A stretch of DNA of 64,000 nucleotides from an uncultured bacterium. GTDB lineage: Bacteria; Patescibacteriota; Minisyncoccia; UBA6257; GWB1-50-10. The notes below the pieces were generated by a model. That model was given only the letters and a program-made list of their open reading frames with translations, searched no databases and was not told the DNA's origin. The stretch is taken from positions 523 through 64,522 of the forward strand of contig CAIKKG010000024.1 of the NCBI GenBank assembly GCA_903827975.1, in the 5' to 3' direction. Made by a program: the position numbers and the translations under genes. Positions 3,351-60,458 of this stretch are shown one piece after another; within the stretch, counting starts at the first letter, position 1; every line of letters starts with the position of its first letter.

Positions 3351-5792
3351 TTATAGTACGAAATTTATTAGTCTATCTTCCACGAAAATAGTTTTCTTAA
3401 TCTCCTTACCATTAAGTATGCCACTAACAGTACTATTTTTCATTGCCTCTACTTTTGCATCGGCCTCTGAAATTCCAACTGGTACAGTAATTCTGGACTT
3501 AAATTTGCCATTAATCTGAACGACTAATTCAAATGTGTCTTCAACTGTCTTACTATGTTCAAAGGTTGGCCATTTTGAAATATGGATTGATTTTTTATTT
3601 CCTAGCTCGTACCAAAGTTCTTCTGTGATGTGTGGCGCAAATGGCGCAATTAGTTTAATCAAAACTTCAAACTCTTTTCGACTTAACCCTTTCTCTTCAA
3701 CTTTATTTAATAGAACCATTAGAGAACTTATCGCTGTATTGTACTGAAGGTTCTCAATATCACTTGTCACCTTCTTTATTGTCTGGTGCAAAATTCTCTC
3801 CCTGCTTTCATCTTTTGCTACTTTTTCTTTTTCAATAACACGTTGTCCCAATCTCCAAACACGATCTAAAAATCTCGTTATTCCAAGCATTCCTGCATCG
3901 CGAAAATCTCCACCCTGCTCAAATGGAGCTAGGAACATTAGATATGTGCGAAGAGTGTCCGCTCCGAATCTCTTTATATACTCGTCTGGATTAACTACAT
4001 TCCCTTTTGACTTAGACATCTTTGCTCCATCCTTAATCAAAAGTCCGTGAGCTCTGAATTTAGTGAATGGCTCCTCAAAATTAATTATTCCTATATCACT
4101 CAAAACCATTGTTATAAATCTTGAGTAAAGAAGATGAAGAACTGAGTGCTCAGCTCCACCAATATACTCATTTACTGGTAGCCATTTCTTTGTAATCGCG
4201 TCATCCCACGCAACTTTTTTGTTAGTCGCACTTGGGTATCGTAAAAAGTACCATGCTGAATCAAGGAATGTGTCTGACACGTCTGTCTCTCTGCGTGCTA
4301 CGCTTCCACAACGAGGACATTTTGCCGAGTGAAATGATTTAACCGAGGCGAGAGGTGACTCTCCGGTACCCTCTGGGCGAAATTCTTTTACATTAGGAAG
4401 TATTATAGGCAACTCTTTCTCAGGAACTGCAAACCAGCCGGGCATTCCCTTCTGCTCTCCAATACCACCGAATGCGCACTCCTCGCAAAATATCATTGGA
4501 ATTGGTGGGCTCCAGTAACGCTGACGAGAGACCAACCAGTCTCGAATACGAAACTGTATTTTTCTCTCACCCCCAACCAACTTAACAATCTCCCACATAG
4601 CGTCAGCACTTTTCATTCCGTTAAATTTTTCGGAATTTACAAGCGTTCCCTCTCCTGCGAATGACTCTGTTTGTGCCTCACCTGGTTTTAGACCGCCCCC
4701 ATCAATTACTACCTTAATTGGTATTTTAAACTTCTTGGCGAATGCAAAATCTCGCTCGTCGTGTGCGGGCACAGCCATAATTGCTCCAGTTCCGTATCCT
4801 GATAATACATAATCACTTATATATATTGGGATTCCATCTCCACTTGCGGGGTTAATTGCGAGAACTCCCTTAAGCTCAACACCGGTTTTTTCCTTGCTAC
4901 CCATTGCTCGCTCCTCTTCTGTTTTCTTAACTGTTAAATCAATATATTTTTTTACCTCTCCGAAATTTAGAATTTTCGTTTTCAGTTTCTGCACTAGTTC
5001 GTGCTCAGGAGCTAAGACAACATAAGTTGCTCCATATAACGTATCTGGTCGTGTTGTAAATACTTTTATTACCTGTGGGAAATCTGAAACTGCAAAATTA
5101 ATTTCTGCGCCTTCTGATTTTCCAATCCAGTTTTTTTGCGCGATCTTAACACGCTCTGACCAATCTAGATTCTCTAAATTATGTAAAAGACGATCAGCAT
5201 AATCAGTGATTCTGAAGAACCACTGCTCCAAATCTTTTTTTGGTGCAACGCTGCTACATCGCTCACACTTACTTGCTATTACCTGCTCATCAGCAAGAAC
5301 TGTTTTACAACTTGGGCACCAGTTTACCGATTGCTTCTTTCGATATGCGAGTCCGCGCTTCCACATCTGAACAAATAACCACTGAGTCCACTTATAATAT
5401 TCCGCGTCGTATGTCTCAACATGTTCATTCCACGCAAACCCATTTCCAAGTATCTCAAGTTGCTTATAAAATCTTTTTTCGGAAATTTTAGATTGTTTAA
5501 TAGGGTGCGTTCCTATTTTCATCGCATAATTTTCTGAGTGGATTCCAAATCCATCAAGTCCGATTGGTTCAAAAACATCATAACCGTTCATTCTCTTGAA
5601 TCGCCCGTAGATATCCGAACCAGTGAACGCATACATATTGCCAACATGTAAGCCTTCCGCCGAAGGATATGGGAACATCATGAGATTATAAAAAGGATTT
5701 TTTGCCTTTTTTAAATCTGGTTCATATATTCCATCCTTTAACCATTTCTTCTGCCACCTACTCTCGATTTTTGAAAACTCATACTTCTTCAT
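3351..5792 (-). CDS. leuS: Leucine--tRNA ligase
   Basis: The 813-aa protein has a HIGH-type motif (HVGNMYAFTGSDIYGRF), a KMSKS motif (KMSKSKGN) and a CP1 editing region. Confidence 0.95.
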   Translation of the reverse strand: MKKYEFSKIESRWQKKWLKDGIYEPDLKKAKNPFYNLMMFPYPSAEGLHVGNMYAFTGSDIYGRFKRMNGYDVFEPIGLDGFGIHSENYAMKIGTHPIKQSKISEKRFYKQLEILGNGFAWNEHVETYDAEYYKWTQWLFVQMWKRGLAYRKKQSVNWCPSCKTVLADEQVIASKCERCSSVAPKKDLEQWFFRITDYADRLLHNLENLDWSERVKIAQKNWIGKSEGAEINFAVSDFPQVIKVFTTRPDTLYGATYVVLAPEHELVQKLKTKILNFGEVKKYIDLTVKKTEEERAMGSKEKTGVELKGVLAINPASGDGIPIYISDYVLSGYGTGAIMAVPAHDERDFAFAKKFKIPIKVVIDGGGLKPGEAQTESFAGEGTLVNSEKFNGMKSADAMWEIVKLVGGERKIQFRIRDWLVSRQRYWSPPIPMIFCEECAFGGIGEQKGMPGWFAVPEKELPIILPNVKEFRPEGTGESPLASVKSFHSAKCPRCGSVARRETDVSDTFLDSAWYFLRYPSATNKKVAWDDAITKKWLPVNEYIGGAEHSVLHLLYSRFITMVLSDIGIINFEEPFTKFRAHGLLIKDGAKMSKSKGNVVNPDEYIKRFGADTLRTYLMFLAPFEQGGDFRDAGMLGITRFLDRVWRLGQRVIEKEKVAKDESRERILHQTIKKVTSDIENLQYNTAISSLMVLLNKVEEKGLSRKEFEVLIKLIAPFAPHITEELWYELGNKKSIHISKWPTFEHSKTVEDTFELVVQINGKFKSRITVPVGISEADAKVEAMKNSTVSGILNGKEIKKTIFVEDRLINFVL

Positions 5793-17900: not shown

Positions 17901-17956
17901 CTATTCACGTTACACTCAGAATTACATAAAATGTTTCTACATAAACATTTTTTAAC

Positions 17957-17975
17957 AAGCTGGTAGTGCGATGAA
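17957..17975 (+). repeat. Copy A of the conserved intergenic motif AAGCTGGTAGTGCGATGAA, preceded by the imperfect palindrome AAATGTTT-CTACAT-AAACATTT
   Basis: The same 19-mer occurs at 27243 and 27362. Confidence 0.6.
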
Positions 17976-17998
17976 TGCTAGACTTTATAAATAAAGAT

Positions 17999-22025: not shown

Positions 22026-22904
22026 ATGGGGGTTTTTTTATATAAATGTGATATATTGAAACCAATTATGATAATAGATGGAAAAAGGATGGCTGACGGA
22101 ATAATAGATGAATTGAAGAAAAGACCCGACCAGAAGAAGTTTCTGGCTGCTATTCTGGTTGGCGATGACCCAGGCTCAATTGCCTTTTTAAGGCAGAAAG
22201 AGAAGGTCGCTGAGGAACTAGACATCGAATTTCAGCTACATAAATTTCCTGAGCGTGTTTCTAGAGAAACACTAAGAAGGTCAATGGATAAGATTACAGG
22301 CAGAAGAATGTGTGGTGGACTTATTGTGCAATTACCCCTCCCTTCGCATATTAATATGCACTATATTTTAAATGCCATCCCAAGAGAGGAGGACACCGAC
22401 GTTCTTAGCGAGCGCGCACTTGGTTCTTTCTATGCGGGTAGGGGTGTTGGACTTCCACCAGCTGTTGGAACATTAATTACAATTCTAGCTAGTGAGATGA
22501 AGACATCTGATGGCGAGGAAGCAGAGATGGCTAGTTGGCACGTACAGGATAAAAAGGTTGCGGTTGTTGGACTAGGCTTCTTGGTTGGAAGGCCTATTGC
22601 AACTTGGCTTATAGGAAAAAGTCGCGAAGCGCACTTTTTAGATAAGGGTAGTGATTTTTCAGTATTGCAGAGTATGGATATTGTAATCCTTGGTACTGGA
22701 CACGCACATCTTGTAAACGCCGGCATGTTCAAAAAGGATGCGCTTGTTATAGATTTCGGCTATGCGAGAAAAGGAAAGGATACCCTTGGAGATTTTGATC
22801 CGACAAATGTGCCGGACACAATGAAATACACACCAACGCCTGGTGGAACAGGGCCAATACTTGTTGCGCGTCTCTTCAAAAATTTCTACGACTTAAATAA
22901 ATAA
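22026..22904 (+). CDS. folD: Bifunctional methylenetetrahydrofolate dehydrogenase/methenyl-THF cyclohydrolase
   Basis: The sequence shows MIIDGKRMA...ILVGDDPGS...PTPGGTGPILVARL. The true start is probably the internal ATG at MIIDGK. Confidence 0.75.
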   Translation: MGVFLYKCDILKPIMIIDGKRMADGIIDELKKRPDQKKFLAAILVGDDPGSIAFLRQKEKVAEELDIEFQLHKFPERVSRETLRRSMDKITGRRMCGGLIVQLPLPSHINMHYILNAIPREEDTDVLSERALGSFYAGRGVGLPPAVGTLITILASEMKTSDGEEAEMASWHVQDKKVAVVGLGFLVGRPIATWLIGKSREAHFLDKGSDFSVLQSMDIVILGTGHAHLVNAGMFKKDALVIDFGYARKGKDTLGDFDPTNVPDTMKYTPTPGGTGPILVARLFKNFYDLNK

Positions 22905-24706: not shown

Positions 24707-26818
24707 TTAGTTATCTCCCGACTCATCCACTATTAGCACCTCTCTCGGTTTTGCGCCATCACCAGGTCCAACCATTCCCCTTTCTTCCATCATATCAATT
24801 AGACGGGATGCTCGAGCATAGCCAACCTTTAATCTCCTTTGTAAAAGTGATGCCGATGCTTTTTTTGCAACTTTGACTGCCTCAACCGCCTCATCAAAAA
24901 GTTCATCATCATCTCCAGAAGAGCTTCCTGAAAAACTTTCGAATACGTGTGTTGCCTCTGGTTCGGAATCTATCTGCTCGCTAGAATATGCTGGCTCATT
25001 ATTTTCTCTAATAAATTTCGTAACACTCTTAATCTCGTCTTCCGTAATGAATGCCCCTTGAATACGGCGTGGCTTTGAAAAGTCTGAAGAAACAAAAAGC
25101 ATATCACCATGCCCAAGAAGTTTTTCTGCTCCCGCCGTATCAAGAATTGTGCGTGAGTCAATCTGACTTGCTACCTGAAGTGCTATGCGCGTTGTTATGT
25201 TTGCTTTGATGAGTCCCGTGATTACTTCAACCGAAGGTCGTTGGGTAGATACTATTATATGTATTCCAGTTGCGCGCGCCATCTGCGCCAACCTTATTAT
25301 AGAACCCTCAACCTCTCTCCCGTACGTAGACATGAGGTCAGCCAACTCATCAATAACAACCAAAATGTATGGTAGTTTTTCTTCTGCTTCTTTGTTATAA
25401 CTTTTAATATCACGGGAGCCCGCCTCAAGAAGAACCTGATATCTACGATCCATTTCTTGAATCACCCAGCGCAATGCACCGATTGCTTTTTTATTGTCCG
25501 TAACAACTGGCGCAATCAAATGTGGTAAATCATTATAAACAGATAGTTCAACGCGCTTTGGATCTATCATAATCATTCTCAACATTTCTGGAGAATTTTT
25601 ATATAGAAGAGAAATTAATATCGAATGAAGCGCGATTGATTTTCCTGAGCCTGTGGCGCCGGCTACCAACATGTGTGGCATCTTAGCGATGTTTGTAAAT
25701 ATTGGGTCGCCATTCACATCTCTACCAAGAGCGAATGCAAGTGGTTCTGATTTTTGGAATTCGGGATAAAGAAGGAGACTACCTAGTCGCACAATTGCGG
25801 CGGATTTATTTGGGACCTCTATACCAACCAAAGATTTTCCTGGAATCGGAGCCTCGATACGAATTGGGTGCGCTGCGAGTGCCATTGCAAGATCCTGGTT
25901 CAATGTAGTTATGCGCGAAATTTTTACACCCTCAGCTGGTTTCAATGTATATCTCGTAACAGAAGGTCCAACATTTATCTCGCCCATCTCAACAGGAATT
26001 CCAAAACTTTCGAGCGTTCTTTTAATTCCGTTTGCGTTTGCGCGTAAGTCGCCTATCGTAGGTTTTTCAACAGTCGAAGATAAAAGAGTTGTTGGTGGTG
26101 GTGTATAATTTTTTATACTTTTCTGAGCTAATGTTTTTGGAATATCAAACGCACCAACATCAATTTCATTTGATTCATCTTTTTGTTTTTGATCACGCAA
26201 TGGTCTTTTTATTTCATCCTTAATAGGCTCCTCAGCTGCTGTCGTTGGTAATTTTATTTCTATTTCTTTTTCCTCTTCTTCTTCATCCTCATCTCTAATA
26301 AACCAAGAGAAATTAATTGGTCGGTTTAGTGTTAATAAAAATGATGCGACTAGTGCCGCGAGTAAAAGAATTATTGATGCTGGTGTTCCGAGTGGATTTT
26401 TTAATGAACCAATAAATCCTCCAATTACCCCACCACTTCCAGCAGCTAAAACATCCATGAGTCCGAGCCCGGAAAATACAAACAAAACTCCTCCGATTAA
26501 TGCGATGCCGAAAAATTTTTTTGTTTCAGGTGAAACAAATGAGTACGCAAGAATTACTGAGACGATTGGTAGTAGATAATAACCCCAGCCAAATAATTTA
26601 AAAAGTATGTTGTAGATGGATTCACCCAAAGGTCCGGCCTGTTGAAATCCGGCAAGTAAAAGTATTAGCGCCAACCCAGACAATGCGATTGCAATCACAT
26701 ATTTTTTTACATCTGGGTGAATATCTAATCGTTCACTTCGCACTTTCGCTTCCCTTCCTTTTTCTTCCTTTTCTTTTTTTACTTCCCTATTTTTATTTTT
26801 TATTTTTTTTCGTGACAT
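24707..26818 (-). CDS. ftsK: DNA translocase FtsK/SpoIIIE
   Basis: The 703-aa protein has N-terminal TM helices, an acidic linker, a motor domain with VAGATGSGKS and a gamma-domain-like C-terminus. Confidence 0.9.
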   Translation of the reverse strand: MSRKKIKNKNREVKKEKEEKGREAKVRSERLDIHPDVKKYVIAIALSGLALILLLAGFQQAGPLGESIYNILFKLFGWGYYLLPIVSVILAYSFVSPETKKFFGIALIGGVLFVFSGLGLMDVLAAGSGGVIGGFIGSLKNPLGTPASIILLLAALVASFLLTLNRPINFSWFIRDEDEEEEEKEIEIKLPTTAAEEPIKDEIKRPLRDQKQKDESNEIDVGAFDIPKTLAQKSIKNYTPPPTTLLSSTVEKPTIGDLRANANGIKRTLESFGIPVEMGEINVGPSVTRYTLKPAEGVKISRITTLNQDLAMALAAHPIRIEAPIPGKSLVGIEVPNKSAAIVRLGSLLLYPEFQKSEPLAFALGRDVNGDPIFTNIAKMPHMLVAGATGSGKSIALHSILISLLYKNSPEMLRMIMIDPKRVELSVYNDLPHLIAPVVTDNKKAIGALRWVIQEMDRRYQVLLEAGSRDIKSYNKEAEEKLPYILVVIDELADLMSTYGREVEGSIIRLAQMARATGIHIIVSTQRPSVEVITGLIKANITTRIALQVASQIDSRTILDTAGAEKLLGHGDMLFVSSDFSKPRRIQGAFITEDEIKSVTKFIRENNEPAYSSEQIDSEPEATHVFESFSGSSSGDDDELFDEAVEAVKVAKKASASLLQRRLKVGYARASRLIDMMEERGMVGPGDGAKPREVLIVDESGDN

Positions 26819-27242
26819 GAGAGGTTTGTATACATCTAATTAAAGGCGAGTGTGCTTAAAAATTCAAGTAATGAAATTTAGAATTTGTGTCTTAATACTT
26901 GTGTTTTTTCATTTTTTTAAAACTCGTCCCTTATGCTTTTTAAGCACCTCTCATTATCCTGGTTTTTAATTTTCTATTACGACAATCACCCATCACCAAA
27001 CATAAATATATTCACATTCTAATAGCCACCAATTCCCTGTCTTTTTAGCGCCGACCCGCCAATGAAAACTATCTAGTAAGCCCGGGCAGGTAAAATACCC
27101 TCGCGATACAAGAACAACCTTAGACTATAACTCACCCACCCATAAGACATTTCAAGGTTCGTAAATCTGCAGACTGTGAGTCTCACAACTAGGTCATCCC
27201 ATCAACCCACCCATTGGAAGATTTATATTCAAACTAGCCGAC

Positions 27243-27313
27243 AAGCTGGTAGTGCGATGAAACCTACATTTTTTAAAATTTTTATGGAAAAGTGTTTGTG
27301 CACAAACACTTTT
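27243..27313 (+). repeat. Copy B of the intergenic element. It consists of AAGCTGGTAGTGCGATGAA-ACCTACATTTTT, a spacer, and the 26-nt perfect palindrome AAAAGTGTTTGTGCACAAACACTTTT.
   Basis: It is a direct repeat of 27362-27423, and the 19-mer is also at 17957. Confidence 0.7.
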
Positions 27314-27361
27314 AAACCGAAAAACAAGGAAAACAAGGAAAACCTGATTTATCAGCATTGA

Positions 27362-27423
27362 AAGCTGGTAGTGCGATGAAACCTACATTTTTGTTTTTTA
27401 AAGTGTTTGTGCACAAACACTTT
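27362..27423 (+). repeat. Copy C of the intergenic element, the 19-mer plus the 24-nt perfect palindrome AAAGTGTTTGTGCACAAACACTTT
   Basis: It is a near-identical tandem copy about 120 bp downstream of copy B. Confidence 0.7.
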
Positions 27424-27483
27424 GTGTAATTATTCGTGTATAATTTTAGTTTTTTTAGCTAAATGTTTTTAAATTTTATGCAA

Positions 27484-27522
27484 ATAAAAAACCCCCGTCC
27501 GCCTGCTGGCGAATCGGGGGAG
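27484..27522 (-). terminator. Terminator of the GC-rich ORFan
   Basis: A CCCCCG-TCCGCCTGCTGGCGAAT-CGGGGG hairpin with a T-run on the minus strand. Confidence 0.65.
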
Positions 27523-27526
27523 TGAG

Positions 27527-28051
27527 TTATTTCGGCACCACAATCTGAAGTCTTCTCGTCGGACCGCCGACCAGTCTCCATGCGTGGTGTGTAGCGGTTG
27601 AAAATATTTGTGGGACCAGCCTGTCCATCTCTGGGAAGGATTGGAATTCAATGACAACAACCTCGTCATCAACCTCAGTCAAGAACATCGTGGCTCGGCA
27701 GTCCTTCATTATTTCGGAATGCCCGTACACGCGAATAAAGCGGGCAATCTGTGATTGCTGAAGACAGAGACTTTTAAGACTTCCCCTGCCAAGCTCTTCG
27801 AAAATCTTCGAAACGCATGATTTGTTCTTAAGAACCTGCCAGACCTCGAGCTGGACCTCTCCCGCCTCGGCACCCTTTAATGAACTGTGCCATTCATGGG
27901 CAAGCGGATCTATGTGCATAAAAAGTTCCTCGTTCATTAAGCATTCTTTCCGCGCATCGTCTGGTGAGATGCTTTCAATTAAAATTTCCTTTTCCGGAAA
28001 GATGTGCTTCAGAATTCTAACAGGAAAAATCTTTCGGATAGTTCGTCTCAT
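27527..28051 (-). CDS. Hypothetical protein encoded by a GC-anomalous, stand-alone transcription unit
   Basis: The 174-aa ORF has about 50% GC against about 40% background. It has its own TTGACA-type -35, an AAGGGAG RBS and terminators on both sides. Confidence 0.55.
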   Translation of the reverse strand: MRRTIRKIFPVRILKHIFPEKEILIESISPDDARKECLMNEELFMHIDPLAHEWHSSLKGAEAGEVQLEVWQVLKNKSCVSKIFEELGRGSLKSLCLQQSQIARFIRVYGHSEIMKDCRATMFLTEVDDEVVVIEFQSFPEMDRLVPQIFSTATHHAWRLVGGPTRRLQIVVPK

Positions 28052-29232: not shown

Positions 29233-29304
29233 GTCGGTCCGGCAGGACTCGAACCTGCAACCGGGCGTGTATAAGACGCCTGCTCTGCCATTGAGCTACG
29301 GACC
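29233..29304 (-). tRNA. tRNA with anticodon TAT, formally tRNA-Ile(UAU) decoding AUA
   Basis: The reverse complement CGGTCCGTAGCTCAATGGCAGAGCAGGCGTCTTATACACGCCCGGTTGCAGGTTCGAGTCCTGCCGGACCGA forms a good cloverleaf with anticodon stem GGCGT/ACGCC and loop CTTATAC. Confidence 0.7.
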
Positions 29305-29354
29305 GAATCCATCCCTCGGTTTATACTAACGCGAGAGATGCATTTAAATCAATA

Positions 29355-31465: not shown

Positions 31466-31494
31466 TTGACAAATTGGTATATTGGTGATATAAT
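31466..31494 (+). promoter_or_regulatory. Consensus sigma-70 promoter, TTGACA-17 bp-TATAAT, driving the GC-rich two-gene cassette
   Basis: A perfect -35 TTGACA (31466-31471), a 17-nt spacer and a perfect -10 TATAAT (31489-31494), followed by an AAGGGGG RBS and ATG at 31524. Confidence 0.6.
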
Positions 31495-31523
31495 ATCTTT
31501 AAGATCTTTAACAAGGGGGTTAT

Positions 31524-38462: not shown

Positions 38463-38876
38463 ATGAAACAACTAGTTGCTCTAACTGTTTTGTTACTGGT
38501 CGCCTTTGCAATTTTTATGCCCACACACAACGCGCAGGCTTTAAGTATCTGGGCTGGTGCAAAGTGTGGTGGCGCGGTGATTGGTCTGAATGATGGGCCC
38601 ACTGGCGCGTGTAATCTTTGTGATGCAATGATCGTGCTTCGAAACATAATAAACTTCGGGTTTACGCTCGCCATCTCGATAAGCACTGGTATGATTGCGT
38701 GGGGTGCTGTTCGTATGATGACTGCTGGAGGTAGTGAGAGTAACGTTAGTGAGGCAAAGAAAATAATATTTAGTGCCATAACTGGTGTAGCAATTGCACT
38801 TGGTTCGTGGATTATAGTAAATACATTATTCTCCGTGTTTACCGGTTCGTGGAACTGGAATCATTTCACGTGTTAA
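38463..38876 (+). CDS. VirB2/TrbC-like pilin-module protein, paralog 1
   Basis: A signal peptide (…THNAQA) is followed by Cys residues and a hydrophobic-charged loop-hydrophobic hairpin (LAISISTGMIAWGAVRMMTAGGSESNVSEAKKIIFSAITGVAIALGSWIIV). The hairpin is shared with 38893, 39598 and 61648. Confidence 0.6.
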   Translation: MKQLVALTVLLLVAFAIFMPTHNAQALSIWAGAKCGGAVIGLNDGPTGACNLCDAMIVLRNIINFGFTLAISISTGMIAWGAVRMMTAGGSESNVSEAKKIIFSAITGVAIALGSWIIVNTLFSVFTGSWNWNHFTC

Positions 38877-38892
38877 TATAAATAATAAATAA

Positions 38893-39579
38893 ATGAAAAA
38901 ATCTATTTTAAGAAAAATATTGTTTGTTGCACTAATCGTTATCGCGATATCCTTTCCATCGGTTTCTGTGGTCCGCGCACAATGCGCCCCAAACTCTAGT
39001 CAGTGCCCAGCAGAACTGTGTGGTGGAACATCAGGCTTTGTAGATAGCGATGGTGTGTGCTACACATCAGCAAGTTGTACCAACTCAAATATGTGTACTG
39101 GCGTTGTAACTGGTGGTGTATGTAATCCATCAAATGATTGTGCGTCCTCTTGCGGTGGAAGTCAGGGATATGCGGATAGTGAGGGATCATGCTACACAAG
39201 CTCGGCGTGTAATAACTATACTAGGTGTTCTGGTGGAACTAATACTGGTGGTGGCAATGCTGGTAGTGGTAATAATACTGGCGGGTTAGGTATTGGAGGT
39301 GGTGGCAATGCTGGATCAGACATGCAACTACAGAATCCTCTTGGGGTGAGTAGTATAAATGGTCTCATCAACAGAATAATTGATATTCTTATTATTTTAG
39401 GCATTCCTATTGCTAGTGGAATGATTATATGGGCGGCGTTCCTCTTCATGACCTCTGGTGGCGAGCCAGATAAGCTAACAACCGCAAGACACGCAATATT
39501 GTGGACTGTTATTGGATTTGTTATACTTTTAATTGCTAAGGGTATTGCTAGTATTATCAGGTCCGTTATGGGTATATAA
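38893..39579 (+). CDS. Pilin-module protein, paralog 2, with an N-terminal duplicated Cys-rich domain and a Gly-rich linker
   Basis: After the signal peptide come two copies of a roughly 33-aa Cys motif (C..G.SG[FY].DS[DE]G.CYTS..C.N...C.G), then GGNAGSGNNTGG and the conserved C-terminal 2-TM hairpin (LFMTSGGEPDKLTTARHAILWTVIGFVILLIAKG). Confidence 0.6.
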   Translation: MKKSILRKILFVALIVIAISFPSVSVVRAQCAPNSSQCPAELCGGTSGFVDSDGVCYTSASCTNSNMCTGVVTGGVCNPSNDCASSCGGSQGYADSEGSCYTSSACNNYTRCSGGTNTGGGNAGSGNNTGGLGIGGGGNAGSDMQLQNPLGVSSINGLINRIIDILIILGIPIASGMIIWAAFLFMTSGGEPDKLTTARHAILWTVIGFVILLIAKGIASIIRSVMGI

Positions 39580-39597
39580 CTAAAAAAATATTCTGAA

Positions 39598-39999
39598 ATG
39601 AAAGGTCGGATGTTTGTTTATATAATAAATCAATTTATGAAAAATCTAATAAAATATTCAGTACTTGGTCTTTCAATGTTTCCAGTATTAGCATCTGCTG
39701 CTAATGCAATAACTGGTGGTCCTACAAGTGCTGGTGATGTTTGGACTATAATCAATAATCTTTTGGGTTGGATGGTTGGTCTTTTCTTTTTGGCTGCGAC
39801 TGTTTTTATTCTTTTGGCCGGTTTCAAATATATGACTGCGGCTGGAGATGAGTCAAAGGTTACAGAAGCAAAAAACTATCTTACATATGCTGTAATAGGT
39901 ATTGCTGTTGGGCTTTTAGCATTTGCTATCCCAAATATTCTTGCCTCATTCCTAAAAGTTAATGTTCCGACTGGGGGTCCAGCTGGACAGGCCTTCTAA
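39598..39999 (+). CDS. Pilin-module protein, paralog 3. The ATG at 39637 is an alternative start.
   Basis: It has a signal peptide and the conserved hairpin (AGFKYMTAAGDESKVTEAKNYLTYAVIGIAVGLLAFAIP). Confidence 0.6.
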   Translation: MKGRMFVYIINQFMKNLIKYSVLGLSMFPVLASAANAITGGPTSAGDVWTIINNLLGWMVGLFFLAATVFILLAGFKYMTAAGDESKVTEAKNYLTYAVIGIAVGLLAFAIPNILASFLKVNVPTGGPAGQAF

Positions 40000-40085: not shown

Positions 40086-40167
40086 GCTCCCGTGGCGGAA
40101 CTGGCATACGCGCATGGCTTAGGACCATGTCCCGCAAGGGTTGGAGGTTCAAATCCTCTCGGGAGCA
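40086..40167 (+). tRNA. tRNA-Leu (anticodon TAG)
   Basis: The sequence shows acceptor GCTCCCG/CGGGAGC, a D-arm GGCGGAACTGGCATACGCGC like E. coli tRNA-Leu, anticodon stem CATGG/CCATG around loop CTTAGGA, a long variable arm and T-loop GTTCAAATC. Confidence 0.8.
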
Positions 40168-40173
40168 CAAAGA

Positions 40174-40198
40174 TAAAAACACCAATCTGGTGTTTTTA
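40174..40198 (+). terminator. Terminator after tRNA-Leu
   Basis: AAAAACACCAATCTGGTGTTTTTAG. Confidence 0.65.
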
Positions 40199-40369
40199 GT
40201 TTGTTTATTTAAACTATTTAGATTGGATTGTAAATTATTGACAAGCCTTTAAATTAGTGTTTTGCTCTAATTAATTCCTTGCCGCATGGCATAGGTGGTT
40301 ACTGAAAGGTAGCAACGGGGTCTTTCCTTTCCCTATCAAAAGGATGTTCTTTCCAATAGAAAGGGTCGT

Positions 40370-40663
40370 ATGACCAATACACCCATTCCCGCAATTCGCA
40401 TCTCCATCTCTAGCGGCCCCTCCCGCGAGGAGCTGTTCGATGCTCTTCGCCTGCGCCATGAGCACCGGCCCATCTTGGTCAAGGTCCACCCCTTGGACCA
40501 GAAGCCGATGGATATTAAGTTCATCGTGAACGGAATCGCCGTCGAGGATGGAAGCGGACAGAACTGGCTCATTGAGTTTTTGAACGTGCAGACCCACCAG
40601 ATCGTTCGCGGGTATTACAACTCGCGTACGCGCGCGGGTTGGCTCGACTTCCCTCGAGTGTAG
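40370..40663 (+). CDS. Hypothetical 97-aa protein encoded by a GC-rich (about 57%) stand-alone gene
   Basis: It has a TTGACA -35 at 40238, an AAGGG RBS 5 nt before ATG and its own terminator. It is a GC island between tRNA-Leu and the tyrosine recombinase. Confidence 0.5.
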   Translation: MTNTPIPAIRISISSGPSREELFDALRLRHEHRPILVKVHPLDQKPMDIKFIVNGIAVEDGSGQNWLIEFLNVQTHQIVRGYYNSRTRAGWLDFPRV

Positions 40664-40676
40664 TCATCACATCAAT

Positions 40677-40708
40677 CGCCGCCCGATATATTCGGGCGGT
40701 TTTTTTAT
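40677..40708 (+). terminator. Rho-independent terminator
   Basis: CGCCGCCCGATATATTCGGGCGGTTTTTTT. Confidence 0.7.
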
Positions 40709-40713
40709 ATAAA

Positions 40714-41604
40714 TTATTCCTCCTTCCTTCTAACTCCGTGAAATGCTTCGTGTACCTCATGAAGCTCTTTATTTGTAAGATGAGTATAGACCTGAGTTGT
40801 AGAAATATTTGCGTGACCCAGTAATTCCTGCACCGAGCGAAGATCTGCTCCATTAATTAATAGATCTGTTGCAAATGAGTGGCGTAACTCATGAGGATGA
40901 ACTCGCTTCGCAATCCCAGCCTTCCTCGCATATGTATCAACTAAACGCTGAACAGTTCTTGGAATTATTCTACCTAAAATCTTACCTGTTTTTGCAATAC
41001 TAACAAAAAGTGCCTCCTCAGCATCTGTTCGTTTTTCTAAATACTCTTTAATTGCTTTTTTTGAACTTGTAGAAAGAAACACAACACGAATCTTCTCTCC
41101 CTTTCCTCGAACAGAAAGCTCACCACGAGTTAGATCTATATAGCGTGGAAGATTGCATATCTCTGAGACTCGGAGCCCCGTTGAAAACAGAACCTCGAGT
41201 ACGGCCCTATCGCGAAGTGCACGAAGCGAGTCTCCTTCTGGTGCCGCAAGCAATCGTTCGAGCTCTTTATACTCCAAAACCTCTATATCTCTCCTTGCAA
41301 CCTTCGGTAGTTCTATTGTTTCTGGCGCTAGAGACTTTATTCCACGGCGCACAAGGTACTTTAAAAAATTGCGAAGTGAGATTACGTAGTAATTTTGCGT
41401 TATTTTTTTAATATTCTTGCGGGCTAGCGTAATGCGGAATGATCGCACAACCGAGTCTGTTATCTCGCCTGGAGTCTCAACACCAGTCTCCTTTAAAAAT
41501 ACCGTTAGGTAGTGCGAATAATTTTCACGCGTTTTAAGAGAACGGTTCTTTTCAATCTCAAGATAGTCCAAATACTCCTGAAAAAGCTTCTTAATCTCGC
41601 TCAT
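40714..41604 (-). CDS. xerD: Tyrosine site-specific recombinase of the XerC/XerD type
   Basis: The 296-aa protein has an N-terminal core-binding domain (LDYLEIEKNRSLKTRENY) and a C-terminal catalytic region HPHELRHSFATDLLINGADLRSVQELLGHANISTTQVYTHL, with the R...HxxR...Y residues. Confidence 0.8.
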   Translation of the reverse strand: MSEIKKLFQEYLDYLEIEKNRSLKTRENYSHYLTVFLKETGVETPGEITDSVVRSFRITLARKNIKKITQNYYVISLRNFLKYLVRRGIKSLAPETIELPKVARRDIEVLEYKELERLLAAPEGDSLRALRDRAVLEVLFSTGLRVSEICNLPRYIDLTRGELSVRGKGEKIRVVFLSTSSKKAIKEYLEKRTDAEEALFVSIAKTGKILGRIIPRTVQRLVDTYARKAGIAKRVHPHELRHSFATDLLINGADLRSVQELLGHANISTTQVYTHLTNKELHEVHEAFHGVRRKEE

Positions 41605-51188: not shown

Positions 51189-53198
51189 ATGCAGACCAGA
51201 AAAATAAGAATACTCACATCATTTCTCGCGGTTGTAATTCTCTCGAACTCGCTTTTTTTTGCGTTTCCTCAAAAATCTCTTGCCCAGACTAGTGCTGATG
51301 GTGGTGCTCAGGAAATTGCAGCAAAGTGTGGACTCACAAACGCTACTACGTGGATAGCGGGTAAGCTTTCGGCGGTTGTAACTGGTGCGACTCCAAACAC
51401 TCAGGTTTCTGTAAAGAATGATGAGGCAGCCTCAACCTCTCTTTGGGATGGAGCAAAAGAATGTCTCCTTGCGCTTTGGAATGCTCTTATAAAGATAGCT
51501 TTTAACATGTTTAAAAAGCGCTTACTTGATAGGCTCACCGATGATCTGGTTGGTTGGATAAGTGGAAAAACTGGCAAGCCAAAGTTTATCACTAATTATA
51601 AGGACATGTTAAAGAACACGGCTGATGCTGCTCTTGGAGATACTATTCGTGCAATCGGAGCTGGAAAGTTGTGCGACAATAAACTTAGTGTTCAGCTTCA
51701 ATTAAATCTTCAAGCACTGGATTCTCAAGATTTTTCTAAGAGAGTGGACTGCACGCTTTCTCAGGTTGTTAAGAACATTGGGGCTTTTGGAGATAATTTT
51801 AAAAATGGAAGTTGGATTGGGTATCAGGAGGTCAATTCGCTTCAAAATAATAAGTATGGACTACAACTTTTGGCTATGGATAATCTCGCGCGAGGTCAGG
51901 CAAAGCAGACCGATCTTTTAAAAACCGAGATGGGGGGCTCAAACGGATTCCTATCCACTAAACTTTGTAATAAATGGACAATAATAGGACAAAAGAATGA
52001 TTGTAATACAGGAAGGGGAACGCTCTGCCCAGCTGAGATTGAGCTTGGCTCATTTATCTCTCCACGTGGCAATGATACATACCTAGATGCGGAACAGGAT
52101 GGCTCAGCACTAGCCATAAAATTCCAAGGCGACTCATCAATGAGCTCTTCACTAGCTCAGGTTCCTCCTAATGCTCAGATTAATAAGCTTTTGTGTAAGC
52201 CGGAGGACCAGAAAATAACAACACCTGGATCAACGCTCGCCGCCTCACTAAGCAACTCTCTTGATGCTGATACGAGGAAATTAATAGGTGCTGACGACCT
52301 AACTCCATATTTAGCAAAAATATTTGATGCTGCTTTTAATCGTGTAATAAAAGAGGGTGTTAGAGGGCTCGCAGAAGCTAGCACGAATATTTTCAGTCAG
52401 AGTAGTACTGGCACACAACCACAGTCATATCAAACGAGCTCTCAGTGCTCCTCAATTCGTACCAATGGAACAACTCAATGCTCATTAATACTCACTCAGG
52501 GCGCTCCACAGTGTATTGCCGAGAAGAAGCTTGGTGCTACGGATGCTGATTATGCAAAATGTAATTTAGCCGCTAAGAATGATTGTAATGCCGCCGCGGC
52601 ATCTGCTTGTGATCGCGATGCTATCTATGTTGGTTATGGAGGTTCAATGGTTAGCACCGCCACATCGGACTTACAGTTAAATTCTGTGTCCACATCTACA
52701 ATCTATAACCTTGCGTCCACAACACTTAATACAATTAATACAAAGATTCCACCAATACTTGCTGAGGTTCAGGCTTTGTATGTTCAGTACCAAGGAAGCT
52801 TGATGCTTCTCTCTAGTTGTGAAAAGGCCAAAACCCTACCAAAAGAGGTGTGCCCAACTACATCACTACTTCTAACTCAGTTAATACCCGTCTCCTCACG
52901 CATTAATGGTGTTCCGATGGCAGTAACAACATATAAAAATGAATTGTTGGAAATTATTGGAAAATTAAACAACCCATCACTTAAAGCTGCTGATGCATCA
53001 TATCTTTCTGTTCGGGTCCAGCTTATTTCAACTGATATAACAGATACAATAGACAAATTTACTTCTGATAAATCCATGTTGACGGCTATAAACTTAACAG
53101 AAGAATATAATTCATGCTCAGCAGCAATACCATCAGCGAATAAATATTACATATGCCCAGGCACTAGCACTCCGGGTGGTGGTCCGATTCAGCCGTAA
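51189..53198 (+). CDS. Large exported Cys-rich protein of the T4SS-like operon
   Basis: The 669-aa protein has a signal peptide (…SLAQTSA) and more than 20 Cys residues spread through a Ser/Thr/Asn-rich sequence. Confidence 0.45.
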   Translation: MQTRKIRILTSFLAVVILSNSLFFAFPQKSLAQTSADGGAQEIAAKCGLTNATTWIAGKLSAVVTGATPNTQVSVKNDEAASTSLWDGAKECLLALWNALIKIAFNMFKKRLLDRLTDDLVGWISGKTGKPKFITNYKDMLKNTADAALGDTIRAIGAGKLCDNKLSVQLQLNLQALDSQDFSKRVDCTLSQVVKNIGAFGDNFKNGSWIGYQEVNSLQNNKYGLQLLAMDNLARGQAKQTDLLKTEMGGSNGFLSTKLCNKWTIIGQKNDCNTGRGTLCPAEIELGSFISPRGNDTYLDAEQDGSALAIKFQGDSSMSSSLAQVPPNAQINKLLCKPEDQKITTPGSTLAASLSNSLDADTRKLIGADDLTPYLAKIFDAAFNRVIKEGVRGLAEASTNIFSQSSTGTQPQSYQTSSQCSSIRTNGTTQCSLILTQGAPQCIAEKKLGATDADYAKCNLAAKNDCNAAAASACDRDAIYVGYGGSMVSTATSDLQLNSVSTSTIYNLASTTLNTINTKIPPILAEVQALYVQYQGSLMLLSSCEKAKTLPKEVCPTTSLLLTQLIPVSSRINGVPMAVTTYKNELLEIIGKLNNPSLKAADASYLSVRVQLISTDITDTIDKFTSDKSMLTAINLTEEYNSCSAAIPSANKYYICPGTSTPGGGPIQP

Positions 53199-53206
53199 AT
53201 ATAACA

Positions 53207-55237
53207 ATGAAGCTTCTCAATAAAAAACTGTTACTGGTTTTAGGAATCGTTCTTCTTTCTGGACTTGTCGTCCCTCATTTAGCGCATGCAGCTGGTATGA
53301 TGGAACAGGCACTTACAGATGTAGTAACCTATACCTTTAAATTCATTACCTATATTTTTGCATATATAGGTTCGGTATTATTCAGTTTTGCCGGTATGCT
53401 AGTGGACTACACACTGAGACTTAATATGACTGTTGGGGATACTGAAAAGAATCTTCTTCTTGGTGTTGGTTGGGGCATCACAAAAGATATTGCAAACCTT
53501 GGCTTCGTGCTCGCTATGATTATTATTGCGTTCGCAACAATAATCGGAAATGAAAGTTATGGATACAAAAAATTACTTGCTAATTTAATTGGTGCTGCGA
53601 TTGCTGTAAACTTCAGTCTTGCAATTGCTGGGGTATTTATCGATTTCTCTCATGTTATTACTGTATTTTTTATAAATAAAATAAGTACTACTGGCGCTTC
53701 TGGCATGGCTGAGCAGATGGCAAATGCGTTTAGCGTTCAGAATTTTCTATTAGAGGACTCTAACAATCCACTACCTCCGAATCCGTCTGAGGAGAGTGGG
53801 ACAATGTCACGCCTAAGTACTGCGGTTGTAATCTCTCTTGTGAGTTTAGTCTTTGTACTTGTGTTCACAATAACGGCTGCAATTATATTTTTAATATTTG
53901 CAATAATGCTTCTCGCTCGATATGTCTGGCTATCATTCCTTCTTATTATCGCTCCGATAACATGGTTGTTCTGGGTTATCCCTGGAATGAGTGGTAAGTT
54001 CGGAGAGTGGTGGAGTAACTTCTTAAAACAGGTTTTCTTTGCACCAGCAATGACGTTCTTCCTATATCTTGCTTTTATGAGTGTGCAGGGTCTTGCCGAA
54101 AAACCAGCCACGGGTGCTTTCTTCAAAGATGGCGCGCTTGCAGCAATAATAAGTTCTGGAGCTAATATGGTTGTTTTGATTGGAATCCTTGTTGGTGGAC
54201 TTATAACAGCTGAAAAAATGGGCGCAACTGGCGCAAAAATGGGAATGGAGAGATTGTCTGCTTTGGGTGGCGCCTCAAAGGATTATGCAGGGAGTATAGC
54301 TAAGAAATATGGTAAGAAGGTTGCAGAAACAAAAGCTGTTAAGAGTGTGCAGAGTGCAGCCCTTCGTGTTGGCTCTAGCGCAAGGAAGCTTGCTGAATAT
54401 AAACCAACAAGTAGAACTGGTAAGATTTTGACCGCTGTAACAGGGCTAGGTCTTGCAAAGTCTGTTGTTGGACTTGGAGGAGAAAAATTACAAAATATTG
54501 GTGGCGTGCCAGTAAATCCGGACTCGCTTGGTTCAAGGGCCTGGTCTGCGGTCTGGGGTAAGTATCCTGATAATCGCGCTCAATCTAAGAAGGATGCTGA
54601 TGAGAGGGAACAAAACAAGGGAGCTGAGGAGCTCACGGCTGATCATGAGAAACTACGCACCGAGCGACAGAGGCTTGTTGATAATGGCGTAAGTGAGAAA
54701 GACCCAAGAATTGTCACTATGGATAAGCAACTTGGAAAGCTAAAATCAAGTGTTGTAGAGAAAACAAGCCTACCAAAAGACGTAGAAGGATTAATTAACA
54801 AAGAAAAGGAATTGAAGTTGAAGTTGGAAGAATTGGCAGCTGGTGGTAGTGACATCTCTGTGATTAAAAAGCAACTTGAGAAAGCAACTGATGAACTTGA
54901 TAAGGCTCAAAGAGAGGACTCGAAAATAACACCGGCTAGTAGGGCGTGGAAGAGCCACCGCATTACAAAAGAAGCCACTAGAATGGCTGGTATAATAGGC
55001 GGAAAAATAAAACCTGGTGAGCCAGACCCAGACACAGACACAGATTCCGCTATAGCACAAGAGAAATTATGGCGCGAAATTGATACGCAGAAGAAGCCTA
55101 ACTCCAAACCAGCTTGGGCGGAACGCGTAATTAAACTCGACGCTGCTCTAACAGAAGCTACTGCTGCCCACCTTCCACCTGACGCACTTAAGTACATTGG
55201 GGATTTAAAGGCTGAGGCGATTGATAAGAGTACATAA
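53207..55237 (+). CDS. VirB6/TrbL-like polytopic inner-membrane channel protein with a C-terminal coiled-coil charged tail
   Basis: The 676-aa protein has a signal or TM N-terminus, at least 6 TM helices across the first 350 residues, then a K/E-rich coiled coil. Confidence 0.5.
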   Translation: MKLLNKKLLLVLGIVLLSGLVVPHLAHAAGMMEQALTDVVTYTFKFITYIFAYIGSVLFSFAGMLVDYTLRLNMTVGDTEKNLLLGVGWGITKDIANLGFVLAMIIIAFATIIGNESYGYKKLLANLIGAAIAVNFSLAIAGVFIDFSHVITVFFINKISTTGASGMAEQMANAFSVQNFLLEDSNNPLPPNPSEESGTMSRLSTAVVISLVSLVFVLVFTITAAIIFLIFAIMLLARYVWLSFLLIIAPITWLFWVIPGMSGKFGEWWSNFLKQVFFAPAMTFFLYLAFMSVQGLAEKPATGAFFKDGALAAIISSGANMVVLIGILVGGLITAEKMGATGAKMGMERLSALGGASKDYAGSIAKKYGKKVAETKAVKSVQSAALRVGSSARKLAEYKPTSRTGKILTAVTGLGLAKSVVGLGGEKLQNIGGVPVNPDSLGSRAWSAVWGKYPDNRAQSKKDADEREQNKGAEELTADHEKLRTERQRLVDNGVSEKDPRIVTMDKQLGKLKSSVVEKTSLPKDVEGLINKEKELKLKLEELAAGGSDISVIKKQLEKATDELDKAQREDSKITPASRAWKSHRITKEATRMAGIIGGKIKPGEPDPDTDTDSAIAQEKLWREIDTQKKPNSKPAWAERVIKLDAALTEATAAHLPPDALKYIGDLKAEAIDKST

Positions 55238-55308
55238 TTTAGTGGTAGTTGGTAAAATAATTATAGTACTTACCTAATCTAAAATAGTAATCACACAAAA
55301 CAGATAAT

Positions 55309-56439: not shown

Positions 56440-56447
56440 TTTTTAAT

Positions 56448-56930
56448 ATGGCAGAATTCCAAGTTCCGCAATTTATCGAGGAGAAACCAAAAATCGTTGG
56501 CCCACTAACCATCGTTCAGTTTTTGTATATTGGTTCTGGTGCGGCAATTTCTCTTATAAGTTATTACGCTTTTAATACTATTTTATGGTTAATTATCTCA
56601 ATAATAGTTGTTGGAATATCAGTTGCGCTCGCCTTTGTTAAGGTTAATGGCCAGGACCTGCCAGTTGTTGCTTTGTCTGCTTTTCAGTTTATATGGGGCC
56701 CAAGAAAATACACTTGGCAAAGAGCGATGGAGCAGACGACTTTTGATACTTCTGATTTGGAGAAGATTCAGGTAATAAGAAAAAATATCAGCATTCAAGA
56801 TAAAATTAAATCTATTGCGCTTGGTATTACAACTGGAAGTATTGAGAGAACGAAAGCCGGCGGTACAAAATTTCAGTCTGTTACCTACATAACAGGGGAG
56901 CATAAGGTTGCGAAGAGAGTTGATTACTAA
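56448..56930 (+). CDS. VirB3/PrgI-like small two-TM protein
   Basis: The 160-aa protein starts MAEFQVPQFIEEKPKIVGPLTIVQFLYIGSGAAISLISYY… with two adjacent TM helices, and sits immediately upstream of the VirB4-type ATPase as in canonical T4SS loci. Confidence 0.5.
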   Translation: MAEFQVPQFIEEKPKIVGPLTIVQFLYIGSGAAISLISYYAFNTILWLIISIIVVGISVALAFVKVNGQDLPVVALSAFQFIWGPRKYTWQRAMEQTTFDTSDLEKIQVIRKNISIQDKIKSIALGITTGSIERTKAGGTKFQSVTYITGEHKVAKRVDY

Positions 56931-56959
56931 ACCGCGTAAATACGGTACAATATTAATAC

Positions 56960-57598: not shown

Positions 57599-57607
57599 GA
57601 ATAAAAA

Positions 57608-59359: not shown

Positions 59360-59362
59360 TAA

Positions 59363-60452: not shown

Positions 60453-60458
60453 TCACGC

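Follow-up and report, generated by a model that had tools for sequence, protein, structure and literature searches.

Why would a compact genome leave several hundred base pairs without a gene upstream of ftsK, and what are the repeated, palindromic units that lie there? The question arises from a window of 64,000 nucleotides, the whole stretch of DNA analysed here, from an uncultured bacterium of the CPR/Patescibacteria. An earlier note on this DNA had reported the gap as 660 bp long; it is real and among the longest in the window, but its size is 708 bp (26819–27526). It is bordered on the left by ftsK (24707–26818, minus strand) and on the right by an orphan gene of 174 aa (27527–28051, minus strand). 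The orphan gene has its own terminator, a G+C-rich intrinsic terminator read from the sequence (27484–27521, minus strand) and kept in one relative (L007), which is a boundary feature outside the cassette described below. The conserved element makes up only ~190 bp of the gap (27243–27423), and between it and ftsK lies a lineage-specific spacer of ~420 bp (26819–27242) that is not part of it. In a compact genome, then, this gene-free stretch combines functional DNA with lineage-specific filler.

The cassette, its third copy and its relatives

When the sequence was re-examined, the repeats, palindromes, spacer and upstream dyad were all found where the earlier note had placed them. Two copies of a 31-nt direct repeat, AAGCTGGTAGTGCGATGAAACCTACATTTTT, lie on the plus strand at 27243–27273 and 27362–27392 (100% identity; HMM E=1.7e-12 and E=2.8e-12); both carry the same bipartite motif, which in copy 1 reads AAGCTGGTAG-TGCGATGAAA-CCTACAT and runs into a T-run. 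Copy 1 is followed by a perfect 26-nt palindrome, dyad 1 (27288–27313), and copy 2 by a perfect 24-nt palindrome, dyad 2 (27400–27423). The palindrome AAAGTGTTTGTGCACAAACACTTT is present in both (27289–27312 and 27400–27423), as is the core TGTTTGTGCACAAACA (27293–27308 and 27404–27419), and dyad 2 is the sole terminator-like match in the region, a weak one. Between the two units is an A-rich spacer of 48 nt (27314–27361, plus strand), in which TRF finds 2.6 copies of AAAACAAGG at 27321–27343 and which also contains a small dyad, CTGATTTATCAG, at 27344–27355.

The 19-mer singled out earlier within the repeat occurs three times in the window (0.01 expected) and the palindrome twice (0.00 expected). 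The same module occurs in every one of the 21 related loci, and the element is, as had been claimed, genuine, non-random, non-coding and conserved. The adjoining spacer (26819–27242) has no homologue in relatives except for ~45 nt beside the start of ftsK, and a pseudogene remnant there was rejected for want of any tblastn or blastn signal against the genes found at that position in relatives. Across five strains the cassette is invariant, and the ~10 SNPs all fall in this spacer. The spacer also contains the upstream dyad, GTGCTTAAAAA/TTTTTAAGCAC, confirmed at 26852–26862 and 26937–26947, for which reading by eye found no counterpart before ftsK in L020, the closest relative.

The earlier count of two repeats was correct for the gap but overlooked a third, solitary copy downstream of hsp20 (17928–17983), 9.4 kb from the tandem pair. 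This solitary cassette lies between a glyS-like gene and hsp20 and consists of dyad 3 (AAAATGTTTCTACATAAACATTTT, 17928–17951), whose syntenic counterpart stands beside hsp20 in L020, L021 and L022, and a bipartite motif on the plus strand (AAGCTGGTAG-TGCGATGAAT-GCTAGAC, 17957–17983; HMM E=9e-9) with orthologues in L020 and L021. The 19-mer of this motif copy is exact (17957–17975) and its 3' half partly degenerate.

The 21 related loci are from Jorgensenbacteria/Paceibacteria-like CPR with FtsK identities of 63–90% where measured. Synteny is conserved: the cassette is kept near ftsK (at most 3 kb away in most lineages), metallophosphatase, PGM and yraN, and downstream of hsp20. Copy number is low, with one or two loci per genome in the sequence examined, always at syntenic positions. 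The loci hold 44 motif units, one to four per locus, and 33 of 41 dyads lie within 200 nt of a motif. The distance between motif and dyad varies from ~5 to 53 nt, and the two occur in either order. Almost every relative has A-rich 9–10-nt repeats, GAAAAAC(C/T)YG, before a core; L021 has one inverted unit, and L010 a 77-nt tandem expansion with the same AAGCTGRT head. The flanks diverge around an identical motif, the mark of purifying selection and not of recent spread. There are no matches in phage, plasmid or viral-contig collections, on which ground a phage or plasmid origin was rejected, and the best reading is that the cassette was inherited vertically in this lineage. Two identities can be set aside here. 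The units are not CRISPR, as the earlier note had said, since there are two to four of them at irregular spacings of 56–177 nt, the sequence between repeats is conserved and cas genes are absent. Nor are they fragments of a tRNA, an rRNA or the end of a gene family, which the note had named as the finding that would undo its claim; there is no similarity to tRNA or tmRNA, and none that would make the repeats att repeats of the nearby tRNA-Val/Ile genes.

The dyad and its relation to parS

The palindromes have the consensus AAARTGTTT-N6-AAACAYTTT. In an alignment of 21 units, the palindrome of the window shares its columns with perfect parS sites, TGTTTCACGTGAAACA, of two relatives, L026 (at 5061 and 5208) and L027 (at 5402 and 5539), and in L010 two aligned sites are each one mismatch from canonical parS. 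In sequence comparison, the cassette dyad shows homology to canonical parS, the site whose sequence is established and in which ParB reads the G of the TGTTT arm (10.1101/724823). The window's own dyads have moved away from it: their cores match the parS consensus TGTTNCACGTGAAACA at 10 of 16 positions and differ at all six central ones, and one of these is a specificity position in ParB/Noc, which counts against reading them as parS. Judged by sequence, the cassette dyads fall outside parS, and the only site within one mismatch is the one at 26522; judged by orthology at the same position in relatives, they belong with it (L026 and L027, with L010 near). Because the six central positions all differ, we term them parS-derived, not parS. 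The centre is GTGCAC in this genome and, depending on lineage, AGCGCT, GTCGAC, CTACAG or others, and it is often symmetric. Of 22 distinct dyads, 15 have complementary bases at positions 6/11 and 15 at 7/10 (p=2.5e-5 for each), and since a 7/10 pair would leave an RNA loop of 2 nt, this symmetry points to a dimer on DNA.

Further sites of this type lie within genes. A near-canonical parS with one mismatch, TGTTTCAGGTGAAACA, occupies 26522–26537 in the 5' part of ftsK, 770–880 bp from the cassette; none of 100 shuffles yields a site with at most one mismatch to parS, and the site is not kept in L020. A TGTTT-N6-AAACA dyad in folD (TGTTTCTAGAGAAACA, 22256–22271) is a weak candidate for the same site cluster. 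Altogether the window holds five TGTTT-N6-AAACA dyads, where 0.23 are expected, all between 17.9 and 27.4 kb. The window ends on the right with jag-yidC, and a sister strain continues from there into rnpA-rpmH, dnaA and dnaN, with DnaA boxes and a (TAG)5 DnaA-trio in the dnaA-dnaN spacer. Judging from the sister strain, oriC would lie at window coordinate ~66 kb, ~39 kb from the cassette. Given this gene order, the clustered sites are origin-proximal, as parS usually is. An oriC at the element itself was rejected, as a DnaA-box cluster and a skew switch are both absent there. ParB (Pfam ParBc) was found neither among the window's ORFs of at least 110 aa, nor in the 10 kb beyond dnaA, nor in the flanks of relatives. 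Because it was not found in the sequence examined, we can only infer that ParB binds the dyad. Any role of the bipartite motif is likewise inferred.

The bipartite motif and competing readings

The direct repeat proves to be a fixed bipartite motif of 27 bases, AAGCYGRTAR-N10-SCTACAT, set between the A-rich 9–10-nt repeats and T-runs. Its 10-nt spacer keeps its length but can be replaced as a block (TGCGATGAAA, TCAAGCTAGG or TAATGCTGCG) between unchanged flanks, and 26 of the 44 units from the 21 loci agree at 20 motif bases. We read it as a putative accessory site that would bind a protein or shape the DNA. The neighbours offer no motif-binding protein: the unknown ORFs beside the cassette lack homology from one lineage to another, and the 174-aa gene next to it is itself an orphan. 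A small ORF, Phe-rich leader or type I toxin beginning at the motif's ATG was rejected by eye, as the frames differ among close relatives; ORFs from this ATG run from ~7 to 67 codons (units read by eye), and the ATG is absent in TCAAGCTAGG-type (beta-type) units and in unit 2 of L010.

The units might instead be tandem sRNA genes, in which the motif is an unstructured seed, followed by a U-rich stretch and by the palindrome as terminator hairpin. The layout does suggest this, with a conserved 5' sequence, a U-run and an A4-hairpin-U4 arrangement like that of Hfq-type sRNAs, one dyad that is terminator-like, flexible module spacing, and a position between terminators, independent of the adjoining genes. 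PrrF1 and PrrF2 are tandem duplicated Hfq-type sRNAs, and like them the cassette has two near-identical intergenic units, in both of which a conserved 5' segment leads to a U-flanked 3' hairpin; it differs in that no conserved promoter was found for it, in lacking a stable fold and covariation, and in having a protein-type dyad for a hairpin. On neither strand does the motif fold better than shuffled sequence (z −0.1 to +0.8), and folds of the alignment reach −6.9 and −9.5 kcal/mol, each time with a single compensatory pair, a 4-bp frame alone being kept. A consensus scan and inspection by eye found no conserved sigma-70 promoter, although the genome has textbook ones, and in six lineages the first unit has no hairpin. 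The hairpin is exactly parS in relatives, its symmetry reaches into the would-be loop, and its stems are A/U-rich where the genome's terminators are G+C-rich. Rfam 15, searched at gathering and permissive thresholds, gave no credible match: the long inverted repeat drew only plant-microRNA models, which fit the shape of the hairpin and scored far under the threshold. With no fold beyond that of shuffles, no conserved promoter found and some units without a palindrome, the earlier note's proposal of a duplicated small RNA with the palindrome hairpin at its 3' end is not borne out, and we regard the sRNA reading as a whole as unlikely. It could alternatively take the form of a minus-strand RNA with a weak GUAGG...CUAC hairpin, where the substitutions fit G.U pairs. 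The motif's G-to-A changes leave standard pairs in 25 of 28 and 28 of 28 cases on the minus strand versus 14 of 28 and 18 of 28 on the plus strand, and this compatibility with G.U pairing on the minus strand only hints that the motif is read as RNA or single-stranded DNA. LAGLIDADG genes, which often adjoin conserved RNA genes, adjoin the element in two lineages.

The earlier note had also proposed paired operators for a dimeric regulator. The part of this that fits the palindromes is the dimer, since the dyads are symmetric to their innermost positions and are perfect parS in relatives; the part that does not is their assignment as operators of ftsK or of any particular neighbour. As local operators, the palindromes would bind a dimeric factor (for example, an SOS-type or RodZ-like HTH protein) controlling the ftsK/RodZ-like/recA operon. 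Their place upstream of ftsK, co-oriented with the RodZ-like gene and recA, would suit this, as would the short cassette-ftsK distance in most lineages and a promoter-like site directly upstream of dyad 2 (27472–27443, minus strand). However, the dyads lie 430–600 bp from the ftsK start, and in relatives metallophosphatase, PGM and membrane ORFs, in either orientation, intervene between cassette and ftsK; across lineages the cassette occurs in both orientations, ~0.1 to ~2.7 kb from different genes. The solitary copy is between convergent 3' ends, other dyads are intragenic, and the ancestral sequence is parS, no known operator. We consider local operators improbable.

We think it more improbable still that the cassette is the relic of a mobile element, whether MITE-, PATE- or REP-like, with two subterminal hairpins in the same orientation, as at IS200/IS605 ends, or a GTAG-headed REP. 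Direct repeats with a GTAG...CTAC frame, two dyads that together make a long inverted repeat (36-nt arms, 89% complementary), and the variable unit number, inverted unit and tandem expansion among relatives all recall such elements. REP/BIME sequences and IS200/IS605 miniatures are likewise short palindromes outside genes, headed by a GTAG-type sequence, that follow gene ends in variable clusters, but the cassette is rare, is syntenic across deep divergence (down to the 63% FtsK identity noted above) and comes without RAYT/TnpA. An HUH/RAYT (IS200/IS605-type) transposase was not found nearby, the window's only recombinase being Xer-like and ~13 kb off, and both the empty searches of viral-contig, phage and plasmid collections and the purifying selection on the motif argue against such a relic.

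A site-specific recombination site of dif/Xer or att type, with the palindrome supplying inverted arms around a 6-bp crossover and the direct repeats acting as arm-type sites, seems to us the least probable of these alternatives. The 9-6-9 architecture of the dyad with its variable centre, the nearness of ftsK, the Xer-like recombinase gene at 40714–41604 and A-tracts like those of IHF- or Fis-assisted att sites speak for it. Yet dif is a single 28-bp terminus site, its 6-bp centre framed by two 11-bp arms, whereas this locus is near the origin and each genome has several copies; perfect symmetry, frequent among the centres, would remove the polarity required for recombination; the ancestral sequence has the centre of parS; and conservation does not extend to the right of the motif, which leaves no dif-like second arm. 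Inspection by eye disposed of several known signals in the units: dif (a XerC-arm-like GTGCGATGAA), E. coli Chi (GCTGGTGG), and tRNA D-arm and 16S/5S rRNA fragments, whose defining positions are not conserved across units, as is also true of sigma-54, ECF (TGAAAC) and sigma-28 (GCCGATAA) promoter boxes; a hammerhead or box C/D k-turn (CUGA...GAUGA), where half the units have CUGG; and a half-parS (TGAAAC), missing from beta-type units.

A possible composite centromere and its known counterparts

A parS-like dyad together with a conserved 27-base motif throughout this CPR group makes a DNA landmark near the replication origin likelier than an sRNA or a gene switch, and we put at about even chances the reading that the element is a centromere-type cassette, derived from parS and joined to an accessory DNA motif. 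On this reading the dyad, descended from the centromere site parS, would most likely still be read by a ParB-type dimer through its TGTTT arms, while its central hexamer would have drifted to GTGCAC in this genome; dyad and bipartite motif together may form an origin-proximal complex for partition or chromosome organisation. The variable distance and order of motif and dyad count against this, being a poor fit to a rigid two-protein complex, as do the central differences of the window's dyads from parS, the result that ParB was not found in the sequence examined, the minus-strand pattern of the motif's G-to-A changes, and the fact that no protein can be named as binding the motif. A more specific form of the parS-derived reading, which we offer tentatively and as a possibility only, is that the cassette is an undescribed composite centromere or organising centre of Paceibacteria-type CPR, in which the parS centre drifts or co-evolves with ParB and a second factor, either a protein or a short minus-strand RNA, reads AAGCYGRTAR-N10-SCTACAT.

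Chromosome segregation in CPR/Patescibacteria is almost unstudied, and the literature searched yielded no paper on parS in these bacteria. The cassette could mark the origin-proximal centromere region across a large uncultured clade. It also provides a natural series in which lineages differ at the six central bases of parS but share its arms and much of its symmetry, and such lineage-varying centres with fixed arms make ParB specificity and its evolution directly testable. The conservation of the motif would be explicable only by a newly identified factor or RNA.

Among known systems, TIGR arrays belong to Tas/Nop-domain RNA-guided systems of CPR bacteria and phages, and consist of 8–12-nt repeats and 9-nt variable spacers repeated 5–15 times beside a tas gene (PMC12045711). 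The cassette resembles them in being made of tandem non-CRISPR units in CPR, and one TIGR architecture has palindromes flanking its units, but units of the cassette are 60–130 nt and its 'spacers' are conserved between genomes. TIGR-Tas was rejected because the architecture is unlike, there is no tas gene and the neighbouring proteins have no Nop match. The likeness to the chromosomal parS of ParABS systems lies in the 16-bp dyad with invariant TGTTT/AAACA arms and in the presence of several sites, some of them intragenic, no more than a few tens of kb from oriC. Unlike chromosomal parS, cassette dyads have conserved A3-4/T3-4 flanks and almost always come with a second conserved motif, and a ParB gene was not seen in the sequence examined. 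Such coupling recalls P1 parS, a composite plasmid centromere in which box A and box B motifs are arranged around an IHF bend. There is no sequence similarity between the two, and the cassette differs in its variable motif-dyad spacing, its chromosomal location and its vertical inheritance; what they would share is a symmetric ParB-type site, an asymmetric motif and A/T tracts that could bend, with several motif copies in one complex.

Tandem repeats upstream of ftsK and in related genomes

The gap (26819-27526) between ftsK (24707-26818, minus strand, encoding FtsK alpha, motor, and gamma domains) and an orphan 174-aa gene (27527-28051, minus strand, with a G+C-rich terminator at its end) holds two copies of a 31-nt direct repeat, AAGCTGGTAGTGCGATGAAACCTACATTTTT (27243-27273 and 27362-27392), and two of a perfect palindrome, AAAGTGTTTGTGCACAAACACTTT (27289-27312 and 27400-27423), with a 48-nt A-rich spacer containing 2.6 copies of AAAACAAGG between the units. 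These elements are present as the earlier note described them and lie beyond chance: a 19-mer of the direct repeat has three matches in the window (0.01 expected) and the palindrome two (0.00 expected). The third 19-mer match, an exact copy at 17957 unnoticed in the first reading, sits between convergent glyS-like and hsp20 genes and is preceded by a related dyad, AAAATGTTTCTACATAAACATTTT. Just before the ftsK start codon, a perfect 11-nt inverted repeat, GTGCTTAAAAA/TTTTTAAGCAC (26852-26862 and 26937-26947), has its arms 74 nt apart and could be a 5'-UTR structure; it was not seen in L020, a relative 86% identical.

The closest FtsK proteins carry the labels Jorgensenbacteria, Paceibacterota, Parcubacteria, and Minisyncoccia, which indicates a host among CPR bacteria of the Paceibacteria type, and the window is identical, over the compared stretches, to contig JAPLWF010000003.1 (MAG GCA_026396755.1). 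Among five same-species strains the cassette shows no differences; the spacer toward ftsK has about 10 SNPs, clustered at 27100-27150 and 26940-26950 within non-conserved spacer, and one patch (GTCTAAGG vs GTTTGGAG) holds four changes in eight bases.

As the earlier note had proposed, the 19-mer was sought elsewhere: searching 185,579 species genomes for exact matches turned up five loci, at least three of them labelled CPR, and all five share the tandem arrangement. A metagenome scan with a 20-mer added eight loci, IMG/VR, INPHARED phages, and PLSDB plasmids gave zero matches, and following FtsK homologues from 90% down to 63% identity brought the total to 21 distinct loci and 44 motif units, whose phylogenetic breadth is a lower bound because the collection scans predate the generalised motif. 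The element is low-copy, since a motif HMM found no extra copies in the sequence examined for these genomes. It lies near ftsK, metallophosphatase, phosphoglucomutase, yraN, and comM, with the solitary unit downstream of hsp20, and while flanks diverge between loci, the motif stays identical and keeps its position, which argues for vertical inheritance under selection rather than a spreading mobile element.

Two separate lineages have an ORF directly beside the cassette with a LAGLIDADG Pfam match (L008, 3215-3670, minus strand) or a LAGLIDADG-like motif with no Pfam match (L011, 632-1084). In three other relatives, 77-nt tandem repeats occur between cassette and ftsK (L010, 7316-7676, at least four copies interrupted by an assembly gap; L020, at the contig end; L027, about 5600-5720), each with the cassette's AAGCTGRT head in a CCTCGC/GCGAGG stem and a TGTTT-N7-AAACA dyad, so the unit number can grow.

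The palindromes and parS

Across loci the dyad has the consensus AAARTGTTT-N6-AAACAYTTT. In an alignment of 21 units, the columns occupied in the window by TGTTTGTGCACAAACA hold a perfect canonical parS, TGTTTCACGTGAAACA, twice in each of two relatives (L026 and L027), and a third (L010) has two sites there, each one mismatch from canonical parS. Because exact 16-mer identity at orthologous positions cannot be chance, the cassette palindromes are probably parS-derived. The canonical sequence is documented, and the G of its arm is read by a conserved ParB arginine (10.1101/724823).

The arms are invariant among 22 distinct dyads, although they were the criterion by which sites were selected. 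The centre depends on lineage (GTGCAC, AGCGCT, GTCGAC, TTCGAA, CTACAG, GTTGAC, and others), yet complementarity holds between positions 6 and 11 in 15 of the 22 sites and likewise between 7 and 10 in 15 (p=2.5e-5), whereas positions 8/9 are not complementary. A 7/10 pair would leave a 2-nt loop, impossible in an RNA hairpin; the symmetry is thus of the kind found where a dimer binds duplex DNA.

Five TGTTT-N6-AAACA dyads occur in the window, against 0.23 expected. One of them, TGTTTCAGGTGAAACA (26522-26537), is a near-canonical parS with a single mismatch in the 5' portion of ftsK; shuffling did not yield such a site, and L020 lacks it. Within folD, two lineages have parS-like dyads at positions that do not correspond: TGTTTCTAGAGAAACA in the window (22256-22271) and TGTTTCATGTGAAACA in L026 (10447-10462). 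Elsewhere, in L012 (6999-7014 and 7075-7090) and L016 (1281-1296), the dyad is TGTTTAGCGCTAAACA, which includes TTTAGCGCTAAA, a near match to the RK2 operator of KorB, TTTAGCSGCTAAA; KorB is another member of the ParB family.

Position relative to the replication origin

Jag (R3H domain) and YidC are encoded at the right end of the window, and in a sister strain (L028) rnpA, rpmH, dnaA, and dnaN follow. The dnaA-dnaN spacer (L028 7102-7294), about 2.3 kb beyond the window, has DnaA boxes TGTGGATAT/TGTGAATAT beside TAGTAGTAGTAGTAG, a (TAG)5 DnaA-trio-type unwinding element, the usual oriC signature, and is likely the oriC of this organism. If the strains are collinear, oriC would fall near window coordinate 66 kb, about 39 kb from the tandem cassette and 48 kb from the solitary unit, a location typical of parS clusters.

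Two type IV secretion-like gene blocks (38463-39999 and 51189-63081), transcribed towards the origin, lie between cassette and oriC. Four of their ORFs match T4SS pilin in Pfam, and further Pfam matches are to PrgI and to a TraG-type P-loop ATPase; the sister strain's annotation adds a TrbL match. At 40086-41604, tRNA-Leu(UAG) has as its neighbour the gene of a 296-aa tyrosine recombinase, Xer-like, with Phage_integrase and SAM-like N domains. A tRNA-Ile with anticodon UAU (29233-29305, minus strand) adjoins tRNA-Val(UAC); such a tRNA is unusual, most bacteria decoding AUA by a lysidine-modified CAU tRNA.

The bipartite motif and a possible composite site

Over 44 units the direct repeat resolves to AAGCYGRTAR-N10-SCTACAT, with flanks constant across discrete spacer types of exactly 10 nt: TGCGATGAAA in the window and most loci, TCAAGCTAGG in L023, L025, L026, and one L027 unit, and TAATGCTGCG in one L021 unit. 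On the plus strand, A-rich 9-10-nt repeats (GAAAAACCYG, AAAACAAGG) usually precede the motif and T5 runs follow it. The dyad lies about 35, 43, or 53 nt from the motif in tandem units, is absent after the first unit in six lineages, and in the solitary unit stands in reversed order, some 5-8 nt upstream.

A tandem small RNA ending in the palindrome hairpin, as the earlier note suggested, would suit the stand-alone position and the layout of motif, U-run, and hairpin, but we consider it unlikely. No conserved promoter, stable fold, or credible Rfam match was found for it, the dyad symmetry exceeds that of an RNA hairpin, and a reason would be needed for its terminator being parS. A textbook sigma-70 promoter (TTGACA-17-TATAAT; 31467-31495, plus strand) upstream of an ORF at 31524 indicates that the organism uses canonical promoters, which makes the failure to find one in the cassette meaningful. 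On both strands the motif's fold is no more stable than that of shuffled sequence, and consensus folding of six loci gives no more than -7 to -9.5 kcal/mol and a single compensatory pair. The sole possible stem, a 4-bp GTAG/CTAC frame, has G-to-A changes at two positions that leave uncompensated A.C on the plus strand and would be G.U on the minus strand (standard pairs in 25/28 and 28/28 on the minus strand vs 14/28 and 18/28 on the plus), a hint without explanation rather than evidence of structure.

The note's other proposal, paired operators for a dimeric regulator, agrees with the dimer-type DNA symmetry, but a local operator for ftsK-recA is improbable given the variable gene context and the convergent genes on either side of the solitary copy. 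Less probable again is a relic of a mobile element, and least of all an Xer or att recombination site; copy number, synteny, closeness to the origin, and the symmetric centres speak against both.

That the parS-derived palindromes are still ParB sites in this genome is less certain than their descent, because the centre has wholly changed and neither about 75 kb around oriC nor the relatives' flanks examined showed a ParB gene. The invariant arms, including the ParB-contacted G, together with the kept symmetry and the invariance among strains, favour the view that a dimeric protein still reads the sites through their arms. The bipartite motif behaves like an asymmetric protein-recognition sequence within A/T-tract DNA and may serve, as an accessory or in shaping the DNA, in one nucleoprotein complex with the dyads. 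An overall reading in which parS-derived dyads and an accessory motif form one such complex is, we judge, about an even prospect; loose analogues would be the composite centromeres of plasmids, for example P1 parS.
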